From positions 1-51,968 of the IMG/VR virus record IMGVR_UViG_3300048803_000048: a stretch of 51,968 nt of DNA. One strand, 5' to 3'. Position 1 is the first letter of the stretch; every line of letters starts with the position of its first letter. The notes under the pieces were generated by a model. It was not told where the DNA came from, made no database searches, and saw only the letters and a program-made list of their open reading frames with translations. The translations under genes and the position numbers were made by a program. The DNA is from a virus (Duplodnaviria > Caudoviricetes). Below, in pieces: positions 4,556 through 51,258 of this stretch.

Positions 4556-5475
4556 TCAAAGAAACAATAAGACTCTTTAATACACCCACAGGTACAACCA
4601 TAATTAATATCAGTGGTCATACACCAATTACAGGTATTACTGGAATTATGAATATTTCTTTTGGACTTGGTTCGGGTGATGACTTTTTGGGTTATCAACA
4701 GGAAATTGATAATTTAACACAAGTAGTTAGTCTCGATATCGTCAATCCAGAAATAGACGTAGAAGAACGTAGATTCAATTACATTCCAAATATAGGTCCA
4801 CTAACACTGGAATTTAATTTTCACCAACCTAATGCGGGAAATGTATTTCATTATTATTTTAGTTATCAAGGTTTTACTGTTGATGAAGAAAGACAAAACG
4901 CATTAAATATGCAAAATAGTTTCTTTATTATGGACTATTACGATACGTTTGACATCAATACACAAACCAAAATATTTACAACTTATTTAACAAAAATAAC
5001 TTCAGGTGAATGGAGTGTTGGTTTACCCGAATACACTGAACCCTTTTCAGAATATGTCATCAACGGAAGTTCATCAAATCAGTTATATTATTGGTATGTT
5101 CCTGTATGGTATATAAAGGCAAATTTAACGGGAACAACTAATACTGTTACAGGATATACAAAATTCACGTTTTATAATGCTAAAAGTGGTACAACTGCAC
5201 TGTTTTATAATTCTGATAATGATACTGTTGATGCTAATGGGTATGTTAATCCACAAAAGATGTATTTTAAAACTGAATTAAATTTGGCTAATATGACATG
5301 GAAAATTCTGACTCCACCAAGTCACAATAATGTGATTATTGCAAATCAATTATGGAATAGTCCTGCATATAACGACAAGGTTAATAATACCGTTCAGAAT
5401 TTTAATAATGAACAGCAAGACTATCCTTCAGGCAATACATTTAATTATTTAAATGGAACTTACGAGACCCTTTAA
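4546..5475 (+). CDS. Hypothetical virion structural protein
   Basis: 309-aa ORF overlapping the end of the previous gene; rich in Y, N and T. Confidence 0.55.
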   Translation: MSIIKETIRLFNTPTGTTIINISGHTPITGITGIMNISFGLGSGDDFLGYQQEIDNLTQVVSLDIVNPEIDVEERRFNYIPNIGPLTLEFNFHQPNAGNVFHYYFSYQGFTVDEERQNALNMQNSFFIMDYYDTFDINTQTKIFTTYLTKITSGEWSVGLPEYTEPFSEYVINGSSSNQLYYWYVPVWYIKANLTGTTNTVTGYTKFTFYNAKSGTTALFYNSDNDTVDANGYVNPQKMYFKTELNLANMTWKILTPPSHNNVIIANQLWNSPAYNDKVNNTVQNFNNEQQDYPSGNTFNYLNGTYETL

Positions 5476-7044
5476 TATGAAAGCTATGACATCACAGGTC
5501 CAACCATTACCAAGCATTTTATAACGACTGCCATCGCTAACAATAGAACTATATCCGTCTGGTACTGTCTGTAGTCTTTCATATTCCAGTGGGGTAAGTT
5601 TGCGAACTCTTCGTATTATGCCTGGTTCTAAAACCTTCTTTTGTTGATTACCACCACAAACGGCAGTAAGCGTTTGGCATTTGTGCTGGGGCGAATTAAC
5701 TCTTTTAAGAATATCATGACCATTTATTGCAAGTGTAGCACAAACTACCTTACTATCGCCATGATAAATGTATGATTCACTGTAATAATATTTTTTATCG
5801 ACTTCTTTTTCAAGCACATCAGCAAGTACCAACGGGTTACTTTCTGGTAACTTACCAATTGGTATGTTAGTCCAATAAAGTCTTGGTCTCGATTGTGCAG
5901 AGAACAACTCAGAATTAATAAGTACTGGCTGTATACCAAGAATATCGGTAATTACATCCTGCCATTCTTTCTTCATTACGACATTCTCTAATAAGAAATA
6001 TTTGGGTTTACATTCTTTCAACAAACGCACATATTCAAAAAATAACTTGGACTTACCATCAAATCCGGTATTGGTTGAAATTGTATTGGTGAAACTTTGG
6101 CAAGGACTGCCGCCACAAATTAGTTCAAATTTACCATCAAATAATATCACTCCACCTTCATATTCAACCAAAGTAACTTGTGTCTCCGAATGAAATTGTA
6201 TGAAATCTTCGTAAGTTTTTGAAGTTCGGTTAATCTCATTCCATCTTTGTAATTCTTCGATAAAATTTTGAACATTTCTATTCGTTTCAAATTCTCCGTT
6301 GCCATTTTCTTTTTTGACCTCTCCTCCATATCTATCTTCTTTCGACTCTCCAAATAATTCTTTCTCACATCCTCTCGCCACATTGCTTTCTGAGTTCTCT
6401 CCGAAATCAATTGTCTTTCCTTCGGGTCTGAAAATCTCTCCAATAGTGTTGTTGAAATTTTCTTTTTTGTTTCTTCTAACTGAATTGGTCTGTTTTTCTT
6501 CAATCCCTCTGATATTCTTCGAGAAATTTCTTCGTTCCATATCGTAACCATACCCCCACTCGCTACATTGTAATTCATTGGAGTCTCCGCTATCAACTTT
6601 ATTTCCATTGCTTCTGCTTCCGCTAATATTTCGTGACTTGACAAAATCTCCCAAGTCACGTTTTGAAAACCGTATTTTCTCAATGCATTGTAAAACGGAA
6701 GATTCCCGTACTTTTTTTTGTCCGTCATTCTGTATTTGTGCTCCGAAATACGCTGTGATAGTGAATTTCTTGTCAAGCCAATATAACATTTCCCATTCGG
6801 GAAGTTTGCTTTGTATATTAATATCATATACAGATAAATACTGATGAACATCCAATAAAGAAAGTAATTTTACTTTTATTTTGCAAATATTTCCGAGTTG
6901 TTGGGTTTTAGGAAATTGATTTTGAGTTACTTCAATACAATCTTTGTCAATTTCTGAGGCAAAGTATTGATTGTATGGAATGCCAGCTTTATTTAAAGCA
7001 ATTTGCCCACACGACATTCCATCGAAGGTTGATAATACATTCAT
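5449..7044 (-). CDS. C5 cytosine DNA methyltransferase with a ~247-aa insertion before motif IV
   Basis: Motif I (STFDGMSCG), EID, IV (GGSPCQ), VI (LLENV), VIII (AQSRPRLYW), IX-X (RKLTPLEYERLQT...KMLGNGW). Confidence 0.9.
   Translation of the reverse strand: MNVLSTFDGMSCGQIALNKAGIPYNQYFASEIDKDCIEVTQNQFPKTQQLGNICKIKVKLLSLLDVHQYLSVYDINIQSKLPEWEMLYWLDKKFTITAYFGAQIQNDGQKKVRESSVLQCIEKIRFSKRDLGDFVKSRNISGSRSNGNKVDSGDSNELQCSEWGYGYDMERRNFSKNIRGIEEKQTNSVRRNKKENFNNTIGEIFRPEGKTIDFGENSESNVARGCEKELFGESKEDRYGGEVKKENGNGEFETNRNVQNFIEELQRWNEINRTSKTYEDFIQFHSETQVTLVEYEGGVILFDGKFELICGGSPCQSFTNTISTNTGFDGKSKLFFEYVRLLKECKPKYFLLENVVMKKEWQDVITDILGIQPVLINSELFSAQSRPRLYWTNIPIGKLPESNPLVLADVLEKEVDKKYYYSESYIYHGDSKVVCATLAINGHDILKRVNSPQHKCQTLTAVCGGNQQKKVLEPGIIRRVRKLTPLEYERLQTVPDGYSSIVSDGSRYKMLGNGWTCDVIAFILKGLVSSI
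6147..6827 (-). CDS. GIY-YIG homing endonuclease nested in the +1 frame of the methyltransferase
   Basis: MILIYK...CYIG...R..EH...LRKYG...E...YN..SGG followed by NUMOD3-like basic helices; own GTATTTAT motif at 6834-6841. Confidence 0.9.
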   Translation of the reverse strand: MILIYKANFPNGKCYIGLTRNSLSQRISEHKYRMTDKKKYGNLPFYNALRKYGFQNVTWEILSSHEILAEAEAMEIKLIAETPMNYNVASGGMVTIWNEEISRRISEGLKKNRPIQLEETKKKISTTLLERFSDPKERQLISERTQKAMWREDVRKNYLESRKKIDMEERSKKKMATENLKRIEMFKILSKNYKDGMRLTELQKLTKISYNFIRRHKLLWLNMKVE

Positions 7045-9004: not shown

Positions 9005-9667
9005 ATGGAAGAATTAAAAATAATCACAAGAAATGAAGCAAGAAGAATACAACAAAAATGGTATTATACTGGAATCTCCTGCAAAAATGGACACATTGAT
9101 AAAAGATATGTCAATACCGGAATTTGTTATGGTTGTAAAAGAAGTTTAAATAAAATTTGTAATGTTAGACACCCCGATACTTTAAAAAAAATTAGTAAGA
9201 GGGGGTATAAAAATAATAGAGACCAAAAATTAAAAAATAGTAAAACTTGGGTTGAGAATAATAGAGAAAAATCAAATAAATATAAAAATAATTGGAAGAT
9301 TAATCACAGGGAACAACATTTAAAACAAGCACGTGAATATGCATCCAATAGAAGAAAAGACCCGCACTATAGATTAAGTAAAAATATGAGTAAAGCAATT
9401 TGGGAATGTCTGAAAAACAATAAGAAACAATTCAGTTGGTTAAAATTTGTGAATTTTTCATTGAATGATTTAATCGTGCATCTTGAAAGTAAATTTACTC
9501 CGGAAATGACTTGGGAAAATTATGGAACTTATTGGCATATTGACCACGTTAAACCGTTAAGCTGGTTTGATTTAAAAACAGAATTTAATGATGCTTGGAC
9601 ACTTTCAAATTTACAGCCATTAGAAGCAACAAAAAATTTAAGTAAAAATAATAGATATATAGGATAA
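9005..9667 (+). CDS. Free-standing HNH endonuclease
   Basis: N-terminal C..GH...R....C..C; C-terminal MTWENYG..WHIDH..P...NLQPL....NLSK. Confidence 0.85.
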   Translation: MEELKIITRNEARRIQQKWYYTGISCKNGHIDKRYVNTGICYGCKRSLNKICNVRHPDTLKKISKRGYKNNRDQKLKNSKTWVENNREKSNKYKNNWKINHREQHLKQAREYASNRRKDPHYRLSKNMSKAIWECLKNNKKQFSWLKFVNFSLNDLIVHLESKFTPEMTWENYGTYWHIDHVKPLSWFDLKTEFNDAWTLSNLQPLEATKNLSKNNRYIG

Positions 9668-10696: not shown

Positions 10697-10903
10697 ATGA
10701 AGGGTACAACTGGAATCAAGGTAAGAAGGGCAAGTGCTAAGAAAATGCTTGAGGCACAGCTTTTAAGGGGAACTAAACCCGAAAAAATCAACAAAAAAAC
10801 AACAAGCACGATGATACCGCTAACTCCTGCGGACATCACACGCATCAATAAAGAAATTGAGGCAATAAATAATCCGAAGAAGAAAAATGGTGTGAAGGCA
10901 TAA
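10697..10903 (+). CDS. Small basic hypothetical protein
   Basis: 68-aa K/R-rich ORF; stop overlaps the thyA start. Confidence 0.6.
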   Translation: MKGTTGIKVRRASAKKMLEAQLLRGTKPEKINKKTTSTMIPLTPADITRINKEIEAINNPKKKNGVKA

Positions 10904-12507
10904 TGGAACAGTATTTGGACTTATTGCAGAACATCATTTATAATGGTGTTGAGAAAGAAAGCGGTAGGGCAAACATGCCAAATACCATCGGAATTTCTTA
11001 TGGCTTAATTGAAATGGACCTACGAGACGGTTTTCCGCTTCTTACAACAAAGAAGATGTATTGGAAAGGTATCGTGCACGAACTCCTGTGGTTTCTCCGG
11101 GGAGATACAAATATTAAGTATCTTGTTGATAATAATGTTCATATTTGGGATGGTGATGCTTATAGATATTTTCAAGAACGACTTTGGTTATTGCCGAAAA
11201 TTGAAAATATTAGTATGAATGATTTTATTGATAGGGTTAAAAACAAACAATTCGAAGATGTTTTTCATTATAAATATGGTGATTTAGGTCCAGTTTATGG
11301 ACATAATTGGAGAAATTATAATGGAAAGGTTGATTATTATCATATCGGCAAAAAGCCTAATTTTGAGTTAAATAATTCTAACATATTTGGTGTTGGGATT
11401 ATTGATAATCGTAAAGGATTGAAAAAACATCCACTATTCAATACTTGGTATAATATGATTAGTAGATGTTATAATTACAGCGACCCAAATTTTTCAATGT
11501 ATGGGGGTAGGGGTGTTTATGTTTCTAATGAATGGCTAAATTTTAAAACATTTGAAATTGAAGCAAAAACAATTCCAAATTATAACGATAAGTTAAATAA
11601 TTCGCATAGATATCAATTAGACAAAGATTCTTTAGGTGGTAAATGTTATTCATTAGAAAATTGTATTTGGTTAAGTATTGAAAATAATGCAAGGTTAATA
11701 ACAAAAAATTTCGAATATACAATATCAAACGGTAAAAAAGAAATAATAACAACAAATATTGAAGGAACTGCAAAAGAACTGGGTATCGAACCAACTAATT
11801 TAAATAGGGTTTGTCGGGGTGTTAGAAAAAGCGCAGGTGATTGGTATTTAATAAATAAAAAAGATTTTAGAATTGGAGAAGACCAAATTTTAAATATCTT
11901 AAAACAACTAAAAGAAAACCCATATTCAAGGTATCATATTTTAGATGGTTGGAATCCAATTCAAAGAAAATTAAGTGCTCTTGCACCATGTCACCTGCTT
12001 TATCAATTCATTGTAAGACCGTTATTGGATAAACAAAAGGTAGAATGGATTATAAACCAAGAGGGTGTTGATGAAACGAATCCAAATAGTAGTCTTTATG
12101 GTTATGACATTAACAAACCATTGGATTTTGATAATCACCCCACACTAAATGTTCCAAAATTCTACTTGGACCTCAATATGTATCAAAGGTCATGTGATAC
12201 TTTCCTTGGTGTGCCTTTCAATATTGCTTCGATGTCGATACTGTTAAAATTGTTTGCAAAGGCATGTAACATGCTTGATGGTGTGGCTACTTGGATTGGT
12301 GGAGATACACATTTATATGTCAATCACATGGATGCAGTTAAAGAACAACTTTCAAGACAACCACATGATTTGCCAGAATTAATAATTACCAAAAAAATAA
12401 ACTGTCTTGACGATATACTTGCTTTGACAATCGATGACTTTCAATTAAAGGGTTACACCTATCATCCACCAATTAAAGCAGAATTATTTACAGGATTAAA
12501 GAAATAA
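10903..12507 (+). CDS. thyA: Thymidylate synthase with an in-frame HNH-type endonuclease insertion
   Basis: FPLLTTKK, ELLWFLRG, DLGPVYG..WR, DQI, LAPCH, YQRSCD.FLGVPFN, GDTHLY motifs. Confidence 0.95.
   Translation: MEQYLDLLQNIIYNGVEKESGRANMPNTIGISYGLIEMDLRDGFPLLTTKKMYWKGIVHELLWFLRGDTNIKYLVDNNVHIWDGDAYRYFQERLWLLPKIENISMNDFIDRVKNKQFEDVFHYKYGDLGPVYGHNWRNYNGKVDYYHIGKKPNFELNNSNIFGVGIIDNRKGLKKHPLFNTWYNMISRCYNYSDPNFSMYGGRGVYVSNEWLNFKTFEIEAKTIPNYNDKLNNSHRYQLDKDSLGGKCYSLENCIWLSIENNARLITKNFEYTISNGKKEIITTNIEGTAKELGIEPTNLNRVCRGVRKSAGDWYLINKKDFRIGEDQILNILKQLKENPYSRYHILDGWNPIQRKLSALAPCHLLYQFIVRPLLDKQKVEWIINQEGVDETNPNSSLYGYDINKPLDFDNHPTLNVPKFYLDLNMYQRSCDTFLGVPFNIASMSILLKLFAKACNMLDGVATWIGGDTHLYVNHMDAVKEQLSRQPHDLPELIITKKINCLDDILALTIDDFQLKGYTYHPPIKAELFTGLKK
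11326..11874 (+). mobile_element. HNH-like homing endonuclease domain inserted in frame in ThyA
   Basis: GVG...WYNMISRCY....YGGRGV.V..EW..F..F...LDKD...YS.ENC.W.....N and a C-terminal HTH (AKELGI....L.RVCRG.RKSA.DW). Confidence 0.85.
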
Positions 12508-40642: not shown

Positions 40643-41812
40643 ATGAAATATAAAACATTTAAATATAGGATATATCCAAATAATGAACAACAAGAATTAA
40701 TATTAAGACATATTGGTTGTTCTCGTTGGATATATAATTATGGTTTAGAGAAAAAAATTAAATCATATCAAGAAACAGGTAAAGGATTGTCAATGTTTGA
40801 TATTAAAAAAGAATTACCAATACTAAAGAAATCTGAAGATACTAAATGGTTAAAGGAAGTTAATTCTCAATCATTACAAGAATCATTGGTTCATTTAGAT
40901 AAAGCATTTACTAAGTTTTTTAAAGAAAAAAAGGGATTTCCTAAATTTAAATCAAAAAAGAATAACCGTCAAACTTTTTCAATACCACAAAGTACAATAG
41001 TTAATTTTGAGAATAATACTATTGATATTCCTAAATTTAAAAAATCGATTAAAATTATACTACACAGAAAATTCGAAGGTAAAATAAAAACATCAACAAT
41101 AAACAAAACATCAACAGATAAATATTTTATATCAATTTTAGTTGAATTAAATGAAAATAATCCAATAAAAAAACCAATTTGTGAAAGTCAAGCAATTGGT
41201 ATTGATTTGGGTATTAAAACATTTGCAACATTATCTAATAGTGTTGAAATTAAAAATCCTAAATACTTACGTAAGTCACTTAATAATTTAAAAAAAGCAC
41301 ATCGTAAAATGAGCAAAAAAATAAACGGAAGTAATAATTATAAAAAATCTGTTAAAAATTTAGCAATTTTACATGAAAAAGTGGCTAATAAACGTTTGGA
41401 TTTCTTACATAAAACAACACATTATTTAACAACTAATTACGATACATTATGTTTAGAAACATTAAAACCTTGTAATATGATTAAAAATCATAAGTTGGCA
41501 CAAGCATTAAATGACATTGCTATTGGTAAATTTAATGAAATACTTGATTATAAAGCTGAATGGTATGGTTGTAATGTATTAAAAATAGGTCAGTTTGAGC
41601 CAAGTAGTAAAATGTGTAGTTGTGGTGTTATAAATAAAGAATTAAAACTAAGCGATAGGACATGGACATGTAAAAGTTGTAGTGTTACTCATGACAGGGA
41701 TTTATTGGCAGCAAATAACATCAAACATTTTGCTTTTTTAAAAAATAATACGGCAGGAACTGCCGAAATTCACGCTTATGGAGATATGAACGAGATTACT
41801 CGTTCAGCCTAA
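40643..41812 (+). CDS. tnpB: TnpB RNA-guided endonuclease (IS200/IS605 family); no tnpA nearby
   Basis: KYRIYP HTH, GIDLG (RuvC-I), CLETL (RuvC-II), CSCG/CKSC zinc ribbon, DRD..AA.NI (RuvC-III). Confidence 0.95.
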   Translation: MKYKTFKYRIYPNNEQQELILRHIGCSRWIYNYGLEKKIKSYQETGKGLSMFDIKKELPILKKSEDTKWLKEVNSQSLQESLVHLDKAFTKFFKEKKGFPKFKSKKNNRQTFSIPQSTIVNFENNTIDIPKFKKSIKIILHRKFEGKIKTSTINKTSTDKYFISILVELNENNPIKKPICESQAIGIDLGIKTFATLSNSVEIKNPKYLRKSLNNLKKAHRKMSKKINGSNNYKKSVKNLAILHEKVANKRLDFLHKTTHYLTTNYDTLCLETLKPCNMIKNHKLAQALNDIAIGKFNEILDYKAEWYGCNVLKIGQFEPSSKMCSCGVINKELKLSDRTWTCKSCSVTHDRDLLAANNIKHFAFLKNNTAGTAEIHAYGDMNEITRSA

Positions 41813-44964: not shown

Positions 44965-45125
44965 GGGAAAGTCATTGCTTAATTACTGAATTAAGTTACG
45001 TCTGAAAAATCAGGAATGATTTTTAAATTTTATTGCCTGTTAGTGGTTACGTAAAATTTTTAAGACCTAACTGATTGAAATTTAAAAGGATAGTTGCACC
45101 CCAATAAAGCGGGGTGCAATTTTTT
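44965..45125 (+). ncRNA. Candidate novel structured ncRNA (~160 nt)
   Basis: GTATTTATA motif at 44955, no ORF, several helices, two GUUACGU motifs, ends in a terminator. Confidence 0.5.
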
Positions 45126-45126
45126 T
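45094..45126. terminator. Intrinsic terminator
   Basis: TTGCACCCC-AATAAAGC-GGGGTGCAA-TTTTTTT. Confidence 0.85.
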
Positions 45127-46330
45127 ATAGGGGGTAGGAATACTCCATGTCGAGATAGTTGGTTAATATTATTTCATTGTCTCGAATTTCTTTTACATAA
45201 TTAGGTAAAAGTGGAATTTTACCACCGCCACCAGGTGCATCAATTACGTATTGCGGTACTGCATATCCACTTGTAAAGCCACGTAATCCCTTAATAATAT
45301 CAAGTCCTGTCTGTATTGATGTTCTGAAGTGTAAAGAGCCGGGAATTGGGTCGCATTGATATATGTAATATGGTCTAACACGAACACTAAGCAAACCCTT
45401 ATTAAGCCTTCTGAAGGTTTCTATATTATCATTAATCCCTTTCAATAAAACGCTCTGTGACCCCAATGGAATGCCTGCATCAGCCAACATGTTACATGCC
45501 AATCGAGTTTCTTCCGAAAGTTCGTCAGGATGGCTGAAATGTATACTCATGTAAAGCGGATGATACTTCTTCAAGATATTCATCAACTCTGGAGTTATAC
45601 GCATAGGCAGAACTACGGGTACTTTAGTTCCAATACGTATTATTTCTACATGTTTTATGTTACGTAATCTATGTAATATGTATTCTATTTGGTCGTCACG
45701 TAAAGTCAAAGGGTCACCACCAGAAACAATTACATCACGAATTTCGGAATGACTTTCAATATATTGAAAACCCAATTCCCATTGAGATTTTGTTGCGGTT
45801 ATATGGTTTTCTTTTGAAACCATATGACTTCTCGTACAATACCTACAATAAGTACTGCAAAAGTTCGTAATCAAAAATAATGCCCTGTCGAGATATCGAT
45901 GAACAATATTTGGAACAGGCGAATACTTTCCTTCATCGAGAGGGTCTTCTTTCTCACCTTTAATCTGATTTAATTCACTTACCGTAGGAATAATTGTTTT
46001 ATATAATGGATGGTCCGCAGATAGTGTATCCAATAAATAAACAAAATACGGTGTTATTCTAAATGGTAAATGATTTACTGGCATATCAATAATAGTACCG
46101 TTCTTTTTCTTACTCAATACTTGTATAAGTTTTTCGGTGTTGGTAATACTGTTTATAATTTGCCATTTCCAATCATTCCAATTTTCAAGGGTACTGCCTT
46201 TAAAATTCTCGTCAATAAAAAGTTTTAATTTAATTTTTTGAAGCAAGGATTTACTATCCTTGCATTTCGCAGGATAATCATCACTACATTCTGATTCATT
46301 TTGAGACGGTTGTAAATTTTGTTCGTTCAT
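45125..46330 (-). CDS. kamA: KamA-family radical SAM enzyme (lysine 2,3-aminomutase-like)
   Basis: DWKWQ, FRITPY, EDPL.E, HRY.DR, CSTYCRYCTR, SGGDPL, RIGTK.P, QSVLLKG.ND, RPYY.YQCD, PGGGGK (PLP lysine); TAATTTTG promoter at 46378-46385. Confidence 0.92.
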   Translation of the reverse strand: MNEQNLQPSQNESECSDDYPAKCKDSKSLLQKIKLKLFIDENFKGSTLENWNDWKWQIINSITNTEKLIQVLSKKKNGTIIDMPVNHLPFRITPYFVYLLDTLSADHPLYKTIIPTVSELNQIKGEKEDPLDEGKYSPVPNIVHRYLDRALFLITNFCSTYCRYCTRSHMVSKENHITATKSQWELGFQYIESHSEIRDVIVSGGDPLTLRDDQIEYILHRLRNIKHVEIIRIGTKVPVVLPMRITPELMNILKKYHPLYMSIHFSHPDELSEETRLACNMLADAGIPLGSQSVLLKGINDNIETFRRLNKGLLSVRVRPYYIYQCDPIPGSLHFRTSIQTGLDIIKGLRGFTSGYAVPQYVIDAPGGGGKIPLLPNYVKEIRDNEIILTNYLDMEYSYPL

Positions 46331-47295: not shown

Positions 47296-47805
47296 ATGAG
47301 AAATATAAAAGATGTTTTATTTGAGGCAAAAAGAAAAGGATACCATTCTGATATGAATGGCAATATATTTTCATCAAAAAAGAAAATTGCATTACGTAAA
47401 TCAAATCAAAATAGATATAATTTTACTATTAGATTTTATGGTGAAAGAGTAACAATTGCCGTACACAAATTTATTGGTTATTTGAAATTCGGTGATGAAA
47501 TATTTAAAGAAGGTATTGAAATAAGACATTTAGATGATAATTCATTAAATAATTCATGGATTAACATCGGTATTGGAACACATATTGAAAACATGGGTGA
47601 TATTCCAAAAGAAACAAGAATTAAAAGAGCAGTTAATGCTACTAACTATGTTAGACGTTTTAACGATAATACAGTAAAAGAAATAATTAATGATAGAAAT
47701 AATGGATTTACATATGTACAATTATGTGATAAATATAATACAAGCAAATCTACATTAAGTTACTTTTTCAATAATGCTCAATATAGTAAAATAAAAACAG
47801 AGTAG
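47296..47805 (+). CDS. HNH homing endonuclease inside the tRNA array
   Basis: VHKFI...EIRHLDDNSLNN...I.IGT..EN..D and a C-terminal HTH. Confidence 0.85.
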   Translation: MRNIKDVLFEAKRKGYHSDMNGNIFSSKKKIALRKSNQNRYNFTIRFYGERVTIAVHKFIGYLKFGDEIFKEGIEIRHLDDNSLNNSWINIGIGTHIENMGDIPKETRIKRAVNATNYVRRFNDNTVKEIINDRNNGFTYVQLCDKYNTSKSTLSYFFNNAQYSKIKTE

Positions 47806-48726: not shown

Positions 48727-48800
48727 TGACCTTTGGTGTAATTGGTTAACACATCTGATTTTGATTCAGGCGAGTGTAGGTTCGAGTCCTACAAGGTCAA
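48727..48800 (+). tRNA. tRNA-Gln(TTG)
   Basis: TGACCTT/AAGGTCA; loop TT-TTG-AT; GGTTCGAGT; TATCTTTG promoter-like element at 48711-48718. Confidence 0.9.
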
Positions 48801-49275
48801 CTTTTTTACGACAACGACAATGTGTCGGTAATGTTGAATTACAGTTAGGACATAAAATTCGTAAGTTTTCTAAACGATGGTCCGAATTACGACCATTTAT
48901 ATGGTCAAGTATCAGACTCATGTGTTCCCCGTGCCAATTTTCGTCTTGTCCACATTTTTCACAAATTCGTTCTTTTAATCCTTCTTCATACAAACGATTT
49001 TTAATATTACCCACATTTGTATATGTTGACCCCGACACTAATATTTTACTTGTAAGAAATCTTCGAGAATCATTTAATTTACTGTTTGTTCTTGAATATC
49101 TTTCCACATCAGTTTCAAAATGAGAAATATTAATGTTATATAGTTTTACGTATTTTTTTAATATCGGTCTTGAATTGCCTTTAATACCCAACCCCATTTT
49201 TTGTAAAACTTCAGTGTAATTCTTTGAACATTTAACTATGGGTTCGAAATTTTCCTTTAAATATTTTGCTTTCAT
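48766..49275 (-). CDS. HNH endonuclease whose 3' end is antisense to tRNA-Gln
   Basis: CEKCG...LILDHING...DHRLENLRILCPNC. Confidence 0.9.
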   Translation of the reverse strand: MKAKYLKENFEPIVKCSKNYTEVLQKMGLGIKGNSRPILKKYVKLYNINISHFETDVERYSRTNSKLNDSRRFLTSKILVSGSTYTNVGNIKNRLYEEGLKERICEKCGQDENWHGEHMSLILDHINGRNSDHRLENLRILCPNCNSTLPTHCRCRKKVDLVGLEPTLA

Positions 49276-49594: not shown

Positions 49595-50041
49595 ATGGGA
49601 TACAACTTATTCTTAGACGATGTTCGGATGCCGAAGGATACCTTCGACTACATGAAACTTCCAATTTATATTTCAGTCGATTGGTCCATCGTCAGGAATT
49701 ACTATGCCTTTGTACAGATAATTGAAGGTAAAGGTATTCCGGATATTATTAGTTTCGACCACGACCTTGCTGATGAACATTATGACCCAAAAATTGTTGG
49801 TACTGAATCGTATGAACAAATCTACGACATGTTTGACGAAAAGACCGGATACCATTGTGCCAAGTGGCTTATTGACTATTGTATTGACAACAATAAAAAA
49901 CTTCCTGCAGATATTTTGATTCATTCAATGAATCCTGCAGGAAGTATGAACATTAAGTCATTATTCGAAACCTATTTTAAGGTTTATAATATAGACCAAT
50001 CGGGAGATATTTTTATCTTATCTACAAATAAGCGTATTTAA
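49595..50041 (+). CDS. Cyclic-phosphate-processing receiver-like domain protein
   Basis: LFLDD.R.P...ISFDHDL...TGY..AKWL...IHSMNP.G. Confidence 0.75.
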   Translation: MGYNLFLDDVRMPKDTFDYMKLPIYISVDWSIVRNYYAFVQIIEGKGIPDIISFDHDLADEHYDPKIVGTESYEQIYDMFDEKTGYHCAKWLIDYCIDNNKKLPADILIHSMNPAGSMNIKSLFETYFKVYNIDQSGDIFILSTNKRI

Positions 50042-51258
50042 AGTTTAATACCAAGCACTAATATGTCATCAGTTTGGTCGTTAGTGCCTTTCCATCTTAA
50101 TAATCTTTGTTCGAGTAATTGACACTGATATTCCAATCCAAGATGCTGAAAAGAATTTAATAACGTGAAGAAATTATCTTTTAATAACTTTTTATTTTCT
50201 TTCCCGCCAAATTGGTCAACATAACCATCACTATACATGTAAATCACATCATCAGTTTCATATTTAATTTCTTGTGTAGGGAATATTTTTTCAATTCTAT
50301 AATCTACACCGCCAACTAAATATGGATTACCTTTATATGTGGTAATCTTTTTCTCGCCCTTCATCAAATATAATAATGACCTCTGGCATCCACAGTAATA
50401 TATTTTCTTTTCGGTTTTATTAATTGATATCAATGCTAAATCAATTCCATCTTGATATCCATCACCGGATGACTGATTTAATACTTTACAAATATGCGCA
50501 TCAAGCCTGGTTAATATGTCTGTAGGATTATTGGTACAAGTTTCATCTGCCAAAATCTCATTTAAGAAATTACTGCCAAGCATTGCTAATAGCGCACCAG
50601 ACACACCATGTCCCGTACAATCAGCAACAACAACAATAATATTGCCATTTTTTTCGGCAAACCAATAAAAATCACCACTAACAATATCTTTGGGTTTATA
50701 AAATACAAATGCTTCACTAAAATTTTTTAATAAGAAATCAATTTTTGGGAGTGTTAGTGCTTGTATTCTTGCCGCAAATATAATGCTTTGGGTTATGGTC
50801 TTCTTTTCTTCTTCAATTATCTTATATGACCTTTCTAATTCTTTGTTCACATTTTCCAAATTAGCCACTTCATCCCTATACAGATTTTTTAAATACGCAT
50901 TTTCAATTGAAAACGGTAAAAAAGATAAATGGTCATTATTGACATAATCATCAAATCCTTCTTTAAGTATCTCAATAGCAAATTCATCATTAATTGTACC
51001 TGAAAGCAGAATACACAAAATGTCTGGATATGTGCTTTTTGCAAGCCTAAATGCTTCCAAAGAATTAAATCCTTCAGGTAAAACATGACTACATATCATC
51101 ACATCAATCTTATTGTTTTCTAATATAGAAATGAAGGATTTTCTATCGCTTGCAATTAATATATCTGTGGTATATTCGTTGTTTTTCAATAAATTAGAAA
51201 TCAACTCTGCTTGGATTTCAGAGTTATCCAATAGAAGTATTTTAGCAGAATCTTTCAT
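50038..51258 (-). CDS. Receiver domain plus SpoIIE/PP2C (RsbU-like) serine phosphatase
   Basis: N-terminal REC fold; PKDIVSGDFYW, VADCTGHGVSGA, YSDGYVDQFGG, QTDDILVLG. Confidence 0.9.
   Translation of the reverse strand: MKDSAKILLLDNSEIQAELISNLLKNNEYTTDILIASDRKSFISILENNKIDVMICSHVLPEGFNSLEAFRLAKSTYPDILCILLSGTINDEFAIEILKEGFDDYVNNDHLSFLPFSIENAYLKNLYRDEVANLENVNKELERSYKIIEEEKKTITQSIIFAARIQALTLPKIDFLLKNFSEAFVFYKPKDIVSGDFYWFAEKNGNIIVVVADCTGHGVSGALLAMLGSNFLNEILADETCTNNPTDILTRLDAHICKVLNQSSGDGYQDGIDLALISINKTEKKIYYCGCQRSLLYLMKGEKKITTYKGNPYLVGGVDYRIEKIFPTQEIKYETDDVIYMYSDGYVDQFGGKENKKLLKDNFFTLLNSFQHLGLEYQCQLLEQRLLRWKGTNDQTDDILVLGIKL

Follow-up and report, generated by a model that had tools for sequence, protein, structure and literature searches.

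The DNA analysed here (hereafter the window) is the whole stretch of 51,968 nucleotides, a fragment of an AT-rich large phage with terminase, portal, major head and protease genes together with tRNAs. On its minus strand, at 5449..7044, lies an ORF of 531 amino acids for a C5 cytosine methyltransferase, identified by Pfam, PHROG and superposition on M.HhaI, whose Pfam match is split in two stretches. Alignment to homologues that lack the insertion described below (empty alleles) places motifs I-III, on the SAM-binding side, in residues 1-57 (6874..7044), and the catalytic Cys315, motifs IV-X and the target-recognition region in residues 306-531 (5449..6129). The characteristic motifs I, IV, VI, VIII, IX and X are present along with the HhaI fold, and motif III has an asparagine instead of the usual aspartate. 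A pattern search found motifs I-X in 22 of the 24 proteins that carry the insertion (filled proteins). The gene next to the window methylase is convergent.

Between the two methylase stretches is a mobile element (6130..6873, minus strand) of 248 host-frame codons, which replaces a six-codon linker between motifs III and IV. Its ends were placed by comparison with close empty alleles and are uncertain by a few codons. The original prediction had described an insertion of ~247 codons through which the methylase frame stays open. The frame is indeed open, with 531 codons and no stop, and alignment of insertion-free homologues set the junctions at ~6873..6130 and the length at ~248 codons, but the insertion is not a clean one since it takes the place of the linker.

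The nuclease gene and its expression

In the +1 frame, wholly inside the methylase gene, an ORF of 226 amino acids at 6147..6827 (minus strand) encodes a GIY-YIG-type endonuclease, recognised through PHROG, relatives and pN/pS. Its likely start is the ATG at 6827, common to relatives; an upstream ATG at 6851 is not conserved. Within the element, 46 nt lie between K57 and the nuclease ATG and 11 nt between the nuclease stop and position 6136, in line with the ~50 and ~11 nt given previously. The nuclease matched PHROG homing-endonuclease families (E 2e-19) and phrog_5123, 'GIY-YIG motif' (E 3e-7), and over 141 aa it shares 40% identity with a PF01541 protein. The family is defined, in the sections of PMC1564403 considered here, by GIY and YIG motifs, a central arginine and a C-terminal glutamate; the window nuclease has the corresponding residues, and Y5, Y15/G17, R26, E72/E75 and N87 are kept among its relatives. 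We assign it to the GIY-YIG family because of the PHROG matches, the identity to the PF01541 protein and these visible motif residues. A Pfam scan of the window nuclease gave no GIY-YIG match, the nuclease of a relative (L089) matched TIGR01453 below the cut-off (E 8.5e-13), and a PDB sequence search with the nuclease alignment returned no match. A complete GIY-YIG nuclease in the +1 frame, as first proposed, is borne out by the ORF and the motif residues, but not by Pfam.

Substitutions in the overlap fall mainly at third positions of the nuclease codons, and between the window and locus L002 the nuclease frame had a pN/pS of 0.049/0.338. A profile of the host-frame insert matched only 28 proteins among 1.84 billion. 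The matches comprised 26 new sequences; 24 of them match Pfam DNA_methylase, and the remaining pair were judged by eye to be the beginnings of methylases. The substitution pattern, the pN/pS values and the rarity of insert-profile matches indicate that the nuclease frame is the older and constrained one, the loop in the host frame being newer and arising by overprinting. This reverses the original description, in which the nuclease was overprinted inside the methylase.

Gene callers miss nucleases of this kind, and only seven close relatives are listed as proteins. In P0124, P0125, P0127, P0136, P0138 and P0139, seen at the protein level, an apparent motif I belonging to a different type of methylase is followed by an in-frame fusion to a related nuclease (47-51% identity); the remainder of that other methylase was not located.

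T4-like GIY-YIG endonucleases have their own promoter and co-convert their flanks. In the window, a candidate promoter for the nuclease is the motif GTATTTAT (6834..6841, minus strand), which stands before many of the phage's genes and whose function is suggested by its positions. Of its 29 window copies, 15 lie 8-60 nt before an ORF start, compared with 2.3% of random places, and just two lie inside coding sequence, one of them immediately before the nuclease ATG. At 19 of the 21 loci of the family (defined below), the nuclease ATG is preceded at 7-8 nt by TAnnnT, while the other two have the motif of the phage itself; a sigma-70 -10 box fits the same number of loci (19/21). A sigma-70 scan found no site before the window nuclease, and a literature search for the GTATTTAT motif brought up nothing relevant. 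A Bacteroidota-type promoter, compared with the relatives using what we take to be its consensus, fits only some of them and was rejected. These patterns suggest that the nuclease is made from a short-leader transcript whose promoter is adapted to each phage.

Several further genes of the window look mobile (9005-9667, 47296-47805, 48766-49275 and 40643-41812): two are HNH genes located among the tRNAs, one is an HNH-like ORF and one is TnpB-like. Upstream of several of these is the TATTTA motif also found before the nuclease. A thymidylate synthase gene (10903-12507, plus strand) has an in-frame, endonuclease-like insertion at about residues 145-325 (PHROG HNH, E 3e-34) with no intein match in Pfam or NCBIfam, and represents a second splicing-free candidate in the same phage. 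Uncommon phage cargo is also present, in the form of a response-regulator/SpoIIE phosphatase fusion (50038-51258, minus strand) and a lysine-2,3-aminomutase-like radical SAM gene (45125-46330, minus strand).

Stop codons and charge in the host frame

A nuclease codon with a final T creates a host-frame stop if the codon after it starts with AA, AG or GA, so that nearly all host-frame stops can be avoided silently. In the window, none of the 87 at-risk nuclease codons ends in T, compared with 45 of 138 elsewhere. Recoding the nuclease with window codon usage gave 26.6 +/- 3.7 expected host-frame stops and permuting its own codons gave a mean of 12.2, with 0 of 20,000 permutations stop-free; the observed number is zero.

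Related loci were collected through the nuclease, to avoid selecting for open frames. All 21 loci of the nuclease family, which span down to 63% nucleotide identity, have a host frame without stops; they amount to 15 distinct sequences at 97%, one is the window itself and two are cut by contig ends. Methylase flanks were found by tblastn at 20 of the 21 and by eye at the remaining one (L094). Among control GIY-YIG loci (141 of 144 others, as re-found by script), zero host-frame stops were seen in five, all of them one 60% GC sequence. In a 60% GC phage (L034, L035, L036, L113 and L115; matches starting at about 2001 or 1501), the first ~100 codons of a GIY-YIG gene are overlapped by a frame that stays open for 600-770 codons. 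The dual coding proposed for the window is real and selected, and chance is excluded.

An open frame across the whole element bears on the idea that the C-terminal half is made by an internal restart near the element end and pairs in trans with the N-terminal half, as in split methylases. Two-chain C5 methylases do exist, at least in the literature excerpts considered, and some relatives have AAGGAGG 11 nt before a GTG at the element end. This AAGGAGG, however, encodes conserved nuclease residues and is absent from the window and from L089/L090, and a split design would tolerate stops, none of which occurs at the 21 loci. We consider an internal restart very unlikely.

Silent choices in the nuclease also affect the charge of the host-frame product. 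Where a silent A/G site decides between glutamate and lysine in the host frame, G was used at 217 of 362 sites (60%), a pooled count over 15 related and hence not independent sequences. At the same kind of site, control nucleases used G in 110 of 504 cases and window genes used it in 73 of 400 (18-22%), and silent A/G choice in other contexts gave 27-38% G. The preference for Glu over Lys is not only avoidance of A-runs, because it holds before AG as well as before AA. Within single sequences the Glu/Lys contrast was significant in five of six, the window's own being the one that was not (p 0.2). In all six sequences tested, the net charge of the loop was -8 to 0, compared with +34 to +45 under a no-stop null, and a null that drew on each gene's own codon pool gave p values of at most 0.03. 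A basic loop (+16 to +30) was found in 4 of 37 filled proteins, all from a distant clade. Host-frame changes were not significantly conservative over radical (p 0.14), and silent-site divergence was no lower at the 3' ordered end of the insert. Taken together, the codon choices indicate that the host frame is held stop-free and near neutral by selection among silent nuclease codons.

Splicing signals, spread and deletion of the element

Splicing signals were sought at both the RNA and the protein level. Only 46 and 11-17 nt of the element lie outside the nuclease ORF. Rfam gave no group I or group II match in the window region, either at gathering level or up to E 10, and none in 11 relatives up to E 1. 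Pairing between the junctions was at the level of shuffled sequences (window z 0.36; one of 15 below -3), no local fold was conserved, and the element has no terminal repeats. The single RNA contig found (161 nt, 6724-6884), from a run with 8% of the words, bridges no junction and may derive from DNA. Intein and Hint models matched none of the filled proteins, while the same scan recovered both intein ends in P0004, a close relative of the window methylase (86%, C-terminal part) whose LAGLIDADG intein sits at the catalytic Pro-Cys, some ten codons away from the site used by the element. The intein C-terminal H-N/Q-C/S/T was found in none of 34 distinct inserts, and TxxH in only two. The expectation that neither intron nor intein would be detected was thus upheld.

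The original prediction had allowed for removal by ribosomal bypassing. Unorthodox phage introns do exist, according to the portions of PMC11855218 considered here, and the RNA contig, crossing no junction, leaves room for an unusual intron or a ribosomal skip. Besides the negative Rfam scans and the missing junction pairing and terminal repeats, removal from the RNA would relax selection on stops and charge; since a skipped frame would not stay stop-free and charge-balanced, we regard RNA removal or bypassing as highly improbable.

A further alternative is that the whole precursor is translated and the insert is then removed or cut at the protein level, by unrecognised self-processing or by host proteolysis, with the halves staying together. 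This would account equally well for the open frame. The coexistence of full and shortened alleles (see below) resembles inteins, and a cysteine lies near the 5' end in 16 of 34 distinct inserts. It is opposed by the Hint and intein scans, with their positive control in P0004, and by the missing intein ends. The linker LP occurs in 54 of 70 empty proteins and in none of the 24 filled ones, so exact excision cannot rebuild the empty protein. The N-terminal part of the insert that is kept in deleted alleles cannot be an old splicing domain, because the catalytic domain of the nuclease is encoded across it in the other frame. Protein-level removal appears unlikely. Replacement of the linker probably also destroys the cleavage site.

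The insert has a patchy, homing-like distribution at one site. Loci L092 and L093 have inserts that are 100% identical in methylase cores of 73% identity, and other insert/core pairs gave 99/74, 93/54 and 89/79. In a tree of insert-free methylase sequence, five changes are needed to account for the filled alleles, and the window protein falls among empty alleles. A single clade of filled alleles was rejected (p-AU 0.003) for 70 rows and only 118 columns; 18 two-domain or intein-bearing proteins had been omitted, and 74 of the remaining 102 passed the patterns, 70 of them distinct. These comparisons suggest that the insert moves between divergent methylases, and homing is therefore likely.

Single chains with two complete C5 methylase domains head to tail were seen in P0003, P0014, P0035 and their kin. 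In P0045 and P0071 a second, unannotated long insertion lies between motifs IX and X and, as far as can be judged from proteins, may conceal an out-of-frame HNH gene; P0045 has both insertions.

A short loop occupies the element's place in six nuclease-free methylases (L170, L224, L234, L277, L293 and L308). Read by eye as strand-turn-strand-turn-strand, these loops resemble the element ends; for two of the six, the search pattern that found them had itself been derived from the element tail. Long linkers resemble the tail weakly in 5 of 9 cases (z 1.5-3.0). The short loops may be the original landing pad or relics of full loss, and we lean towards the former.

The 28 insert-profile matches consist of 14 full-length proteins, five internally deleted in frame, eight partial sequences and one artefact. 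The five deletions remove 45-130 residues, mostly within about 175-285, and leave the first ~85 insert residues (with small gaps) and the last hairpin. Their nearest parents differ, and for the shortest deleted allele there are four records, drawn from three sources. The deleted alleles were seen at the protein level only, and a profile search favours those that keep the conserved N-terminal part. P0171, initially a candidate deleted allele, was dropped as a pattern artefact. Loss of the middle in frame with retention of both ends is reminiscent of mini-inteins. Broken alleles were also seen: in P0123 and P0173 the methylase frame shifts into the nuclease frame, and P0168, a partial sequence on a 154-kb contig, is probably broken. 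At locus L088 the nuclease frame has two stops and the host frame none.

These alleles bear on whether the methylase is inactive or incidental, in which case its frame might be open for some other reason, such as polarity avoidance or a lucky founder, and its motifs intact through recent invasion. Phage orphan methylases are often dispensable, as stated in the part of PMC11855218 considered here, broken alleles exist, and the core pN/pS between filled alleles may predate invasion. This account is, however, hard to reconcile with stop avoidance across 37% nucleotide divergence, with the silent-site charge balance, or with a frame that stays open after nuclease death (L088) and after large deletions. 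There is also no downstream gene to protect in the window, because the next gene is convergent. An inactive or incidental methylase is quite unlikely. The silent-site charge bias and the deleted alleles instead argue, at the level of sequence, that the loop is translated and selected.

Predicted structure and models for the filled methylase

An AlphaFold model from a 28-row alignment rebuilds the methylase core across the insert and superimposes on M.HhaI with Z 27.8 and an rmsd of 2.4 A over 273 residues. Residues 57-103, 118-138 and 250-303 are predicted to be mostly ordered and most of 139-252 disordered, and the insert folded alone gave the same pattern; the ordered ends come from shallow alignments at a pLDDT of about 70-89, and their conservation is partly imposed by the nuclease frame. 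On the minus strand, host-frame residues 57-138 (6631..6876), predicted to be mostly ordered, are largely kept in deleted alleles, the putatively disordered and near-neutral residues 139-252 (6289..6630) are lost in them, and residues 287-305 (6130..6186), a predicted beta-hairpin leading back into the core, are kept in all five. Fold searches with the low-confidence insert model gave no match at E 0.001 (best Z 5.0), and an ESM Atlas search with the insert returned only low-scoring methylase fragments. The disordered loop of the original prediction survives in part: a tolerated loop is the best reading, but about half of it, at the ends, is predicted to be ordered.

We think it probable that the methylase is translated straight through the nuclease gene and works unspliced, with ~250 additional residues looping out at its surface between motifs III and IV. 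The mechanism we favour on the sequence patterns, with reasonable confidence, is read-through in which the loop is tolerated and anchored by a stem. The nuclease would be translated from a separate short-leader transcript that begins just within the element, and would cut empty alleles; the element would then be copied in by recombination, with its flanks replacing the six-codon linker. In the model, the insert ends fold into a small beta-rich stem that may keep the two halves of the core joined, and the middle is disordered. After nuclease decay the middle would be deleted in frame and the stem would stay. A more ambitious version, which we hold to be possible but somewhat doubtful, is that the shadow frame is a new folded adapter domain on the methylase beta-loop, a splicing-free counterpart of the intein. 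Such a domain would clamp the two enzyme halves, with its neutral charge set through silent codons; it would travel with the nuclease into loop-less alleles and remain as a 'mini' form after nuclease loss.

Phage methylases with HNH nucleases in this arrangement have already been published; here the nuclease is of the GIY-YIG type. An HNH endonuclease encoded out of frame in a phage DNA methylase, that of ShiLan, was described with a tolerated loop as the proposal in the parts of Arsenault, Gosselin and Gogarten 2025 (PMC11855218) considered here, and the Pacc40 gp60 insertion (Gosselin 2023, PMC9957025) is of the same kind. On the evidence of those excerpts, ShiLan and Pacc40 share with the window an out-of-frame nuclease in a phage methylase, a stop-free host frame, a patchy distribution and no detected intron or intein; a tolerated loop and leaderless translation are proposed for both. 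The window element, in contrast, encodes a GIY-YIG rather than an HNH nuclease, in the +1 rather than the third frame, has a visible promoter-like motif and lies in an AT-rich phage, where a chance open frame is far less likely. It replaces a linker, whereas ShiLan duplicates a flank in the account considered. Stop avoidance, charge selection and deleted alleles, all measured here, are not reported for ShiLan in those same sections, and the charge bias, the deleted alleles and the candidate landing loop extend beyond the description given there. A literature search of the main text of freely readable papers found no other description of a GIY-YIG version of such an element.

Inteins with out-of-frame homing endonucleases (bioRxiv 2025.01.02.630785), among them a cyanobacterial dnaX intein (bioRxiv 2026.09.14.751524), are similar, in the excerpts considered, in that a shifted-frame nuclease is under purifying selection, the host frame is open, and full forms occur alongside mini ones. 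In those inteins a splicing domain removes the overlap, whereas no such domain was found in the window element. The T4-like GIY-YIG enzymes I-TevI and Seg combine an N-terminal GIY-YIG domain with a C-terminal DNA-binding region, as here, but lie in a group I intron or between genes according to the excerpts considered (PMC1564403; PMC2988022), whereas the window nuclease is embedded in the coding frame of what is probably its target. In plant chromomethylases, motifs II and IV of the C5 methyltransferase likewise flank a whole inserted domain, though in the part of PMC4539545 considered that domain is old, in-frame and functional, unlike the by-product frame of a mobile gene seen here.

The sections of the ShiLan paper considered here (PMC11855218) left open splicing, survival of the host enzyme and expression of the nuclease. 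For these, the present family offers natural controls: a near-identical empty/filled pair (P0013/P0002), a dead nuclease (L088), deletions to half size (P0163) and promoter candidates. If the stem folds as predicted, the element would add to introns and inteins a third means by which a homing nuclease can reside in its target, and would be an instance of an overlapping frame giving rise to a protein domain. Were the adapter reading true, it would amount to a complete homing cycle without splicing, and to a domain born de novo in a case that is both dated and replicated.
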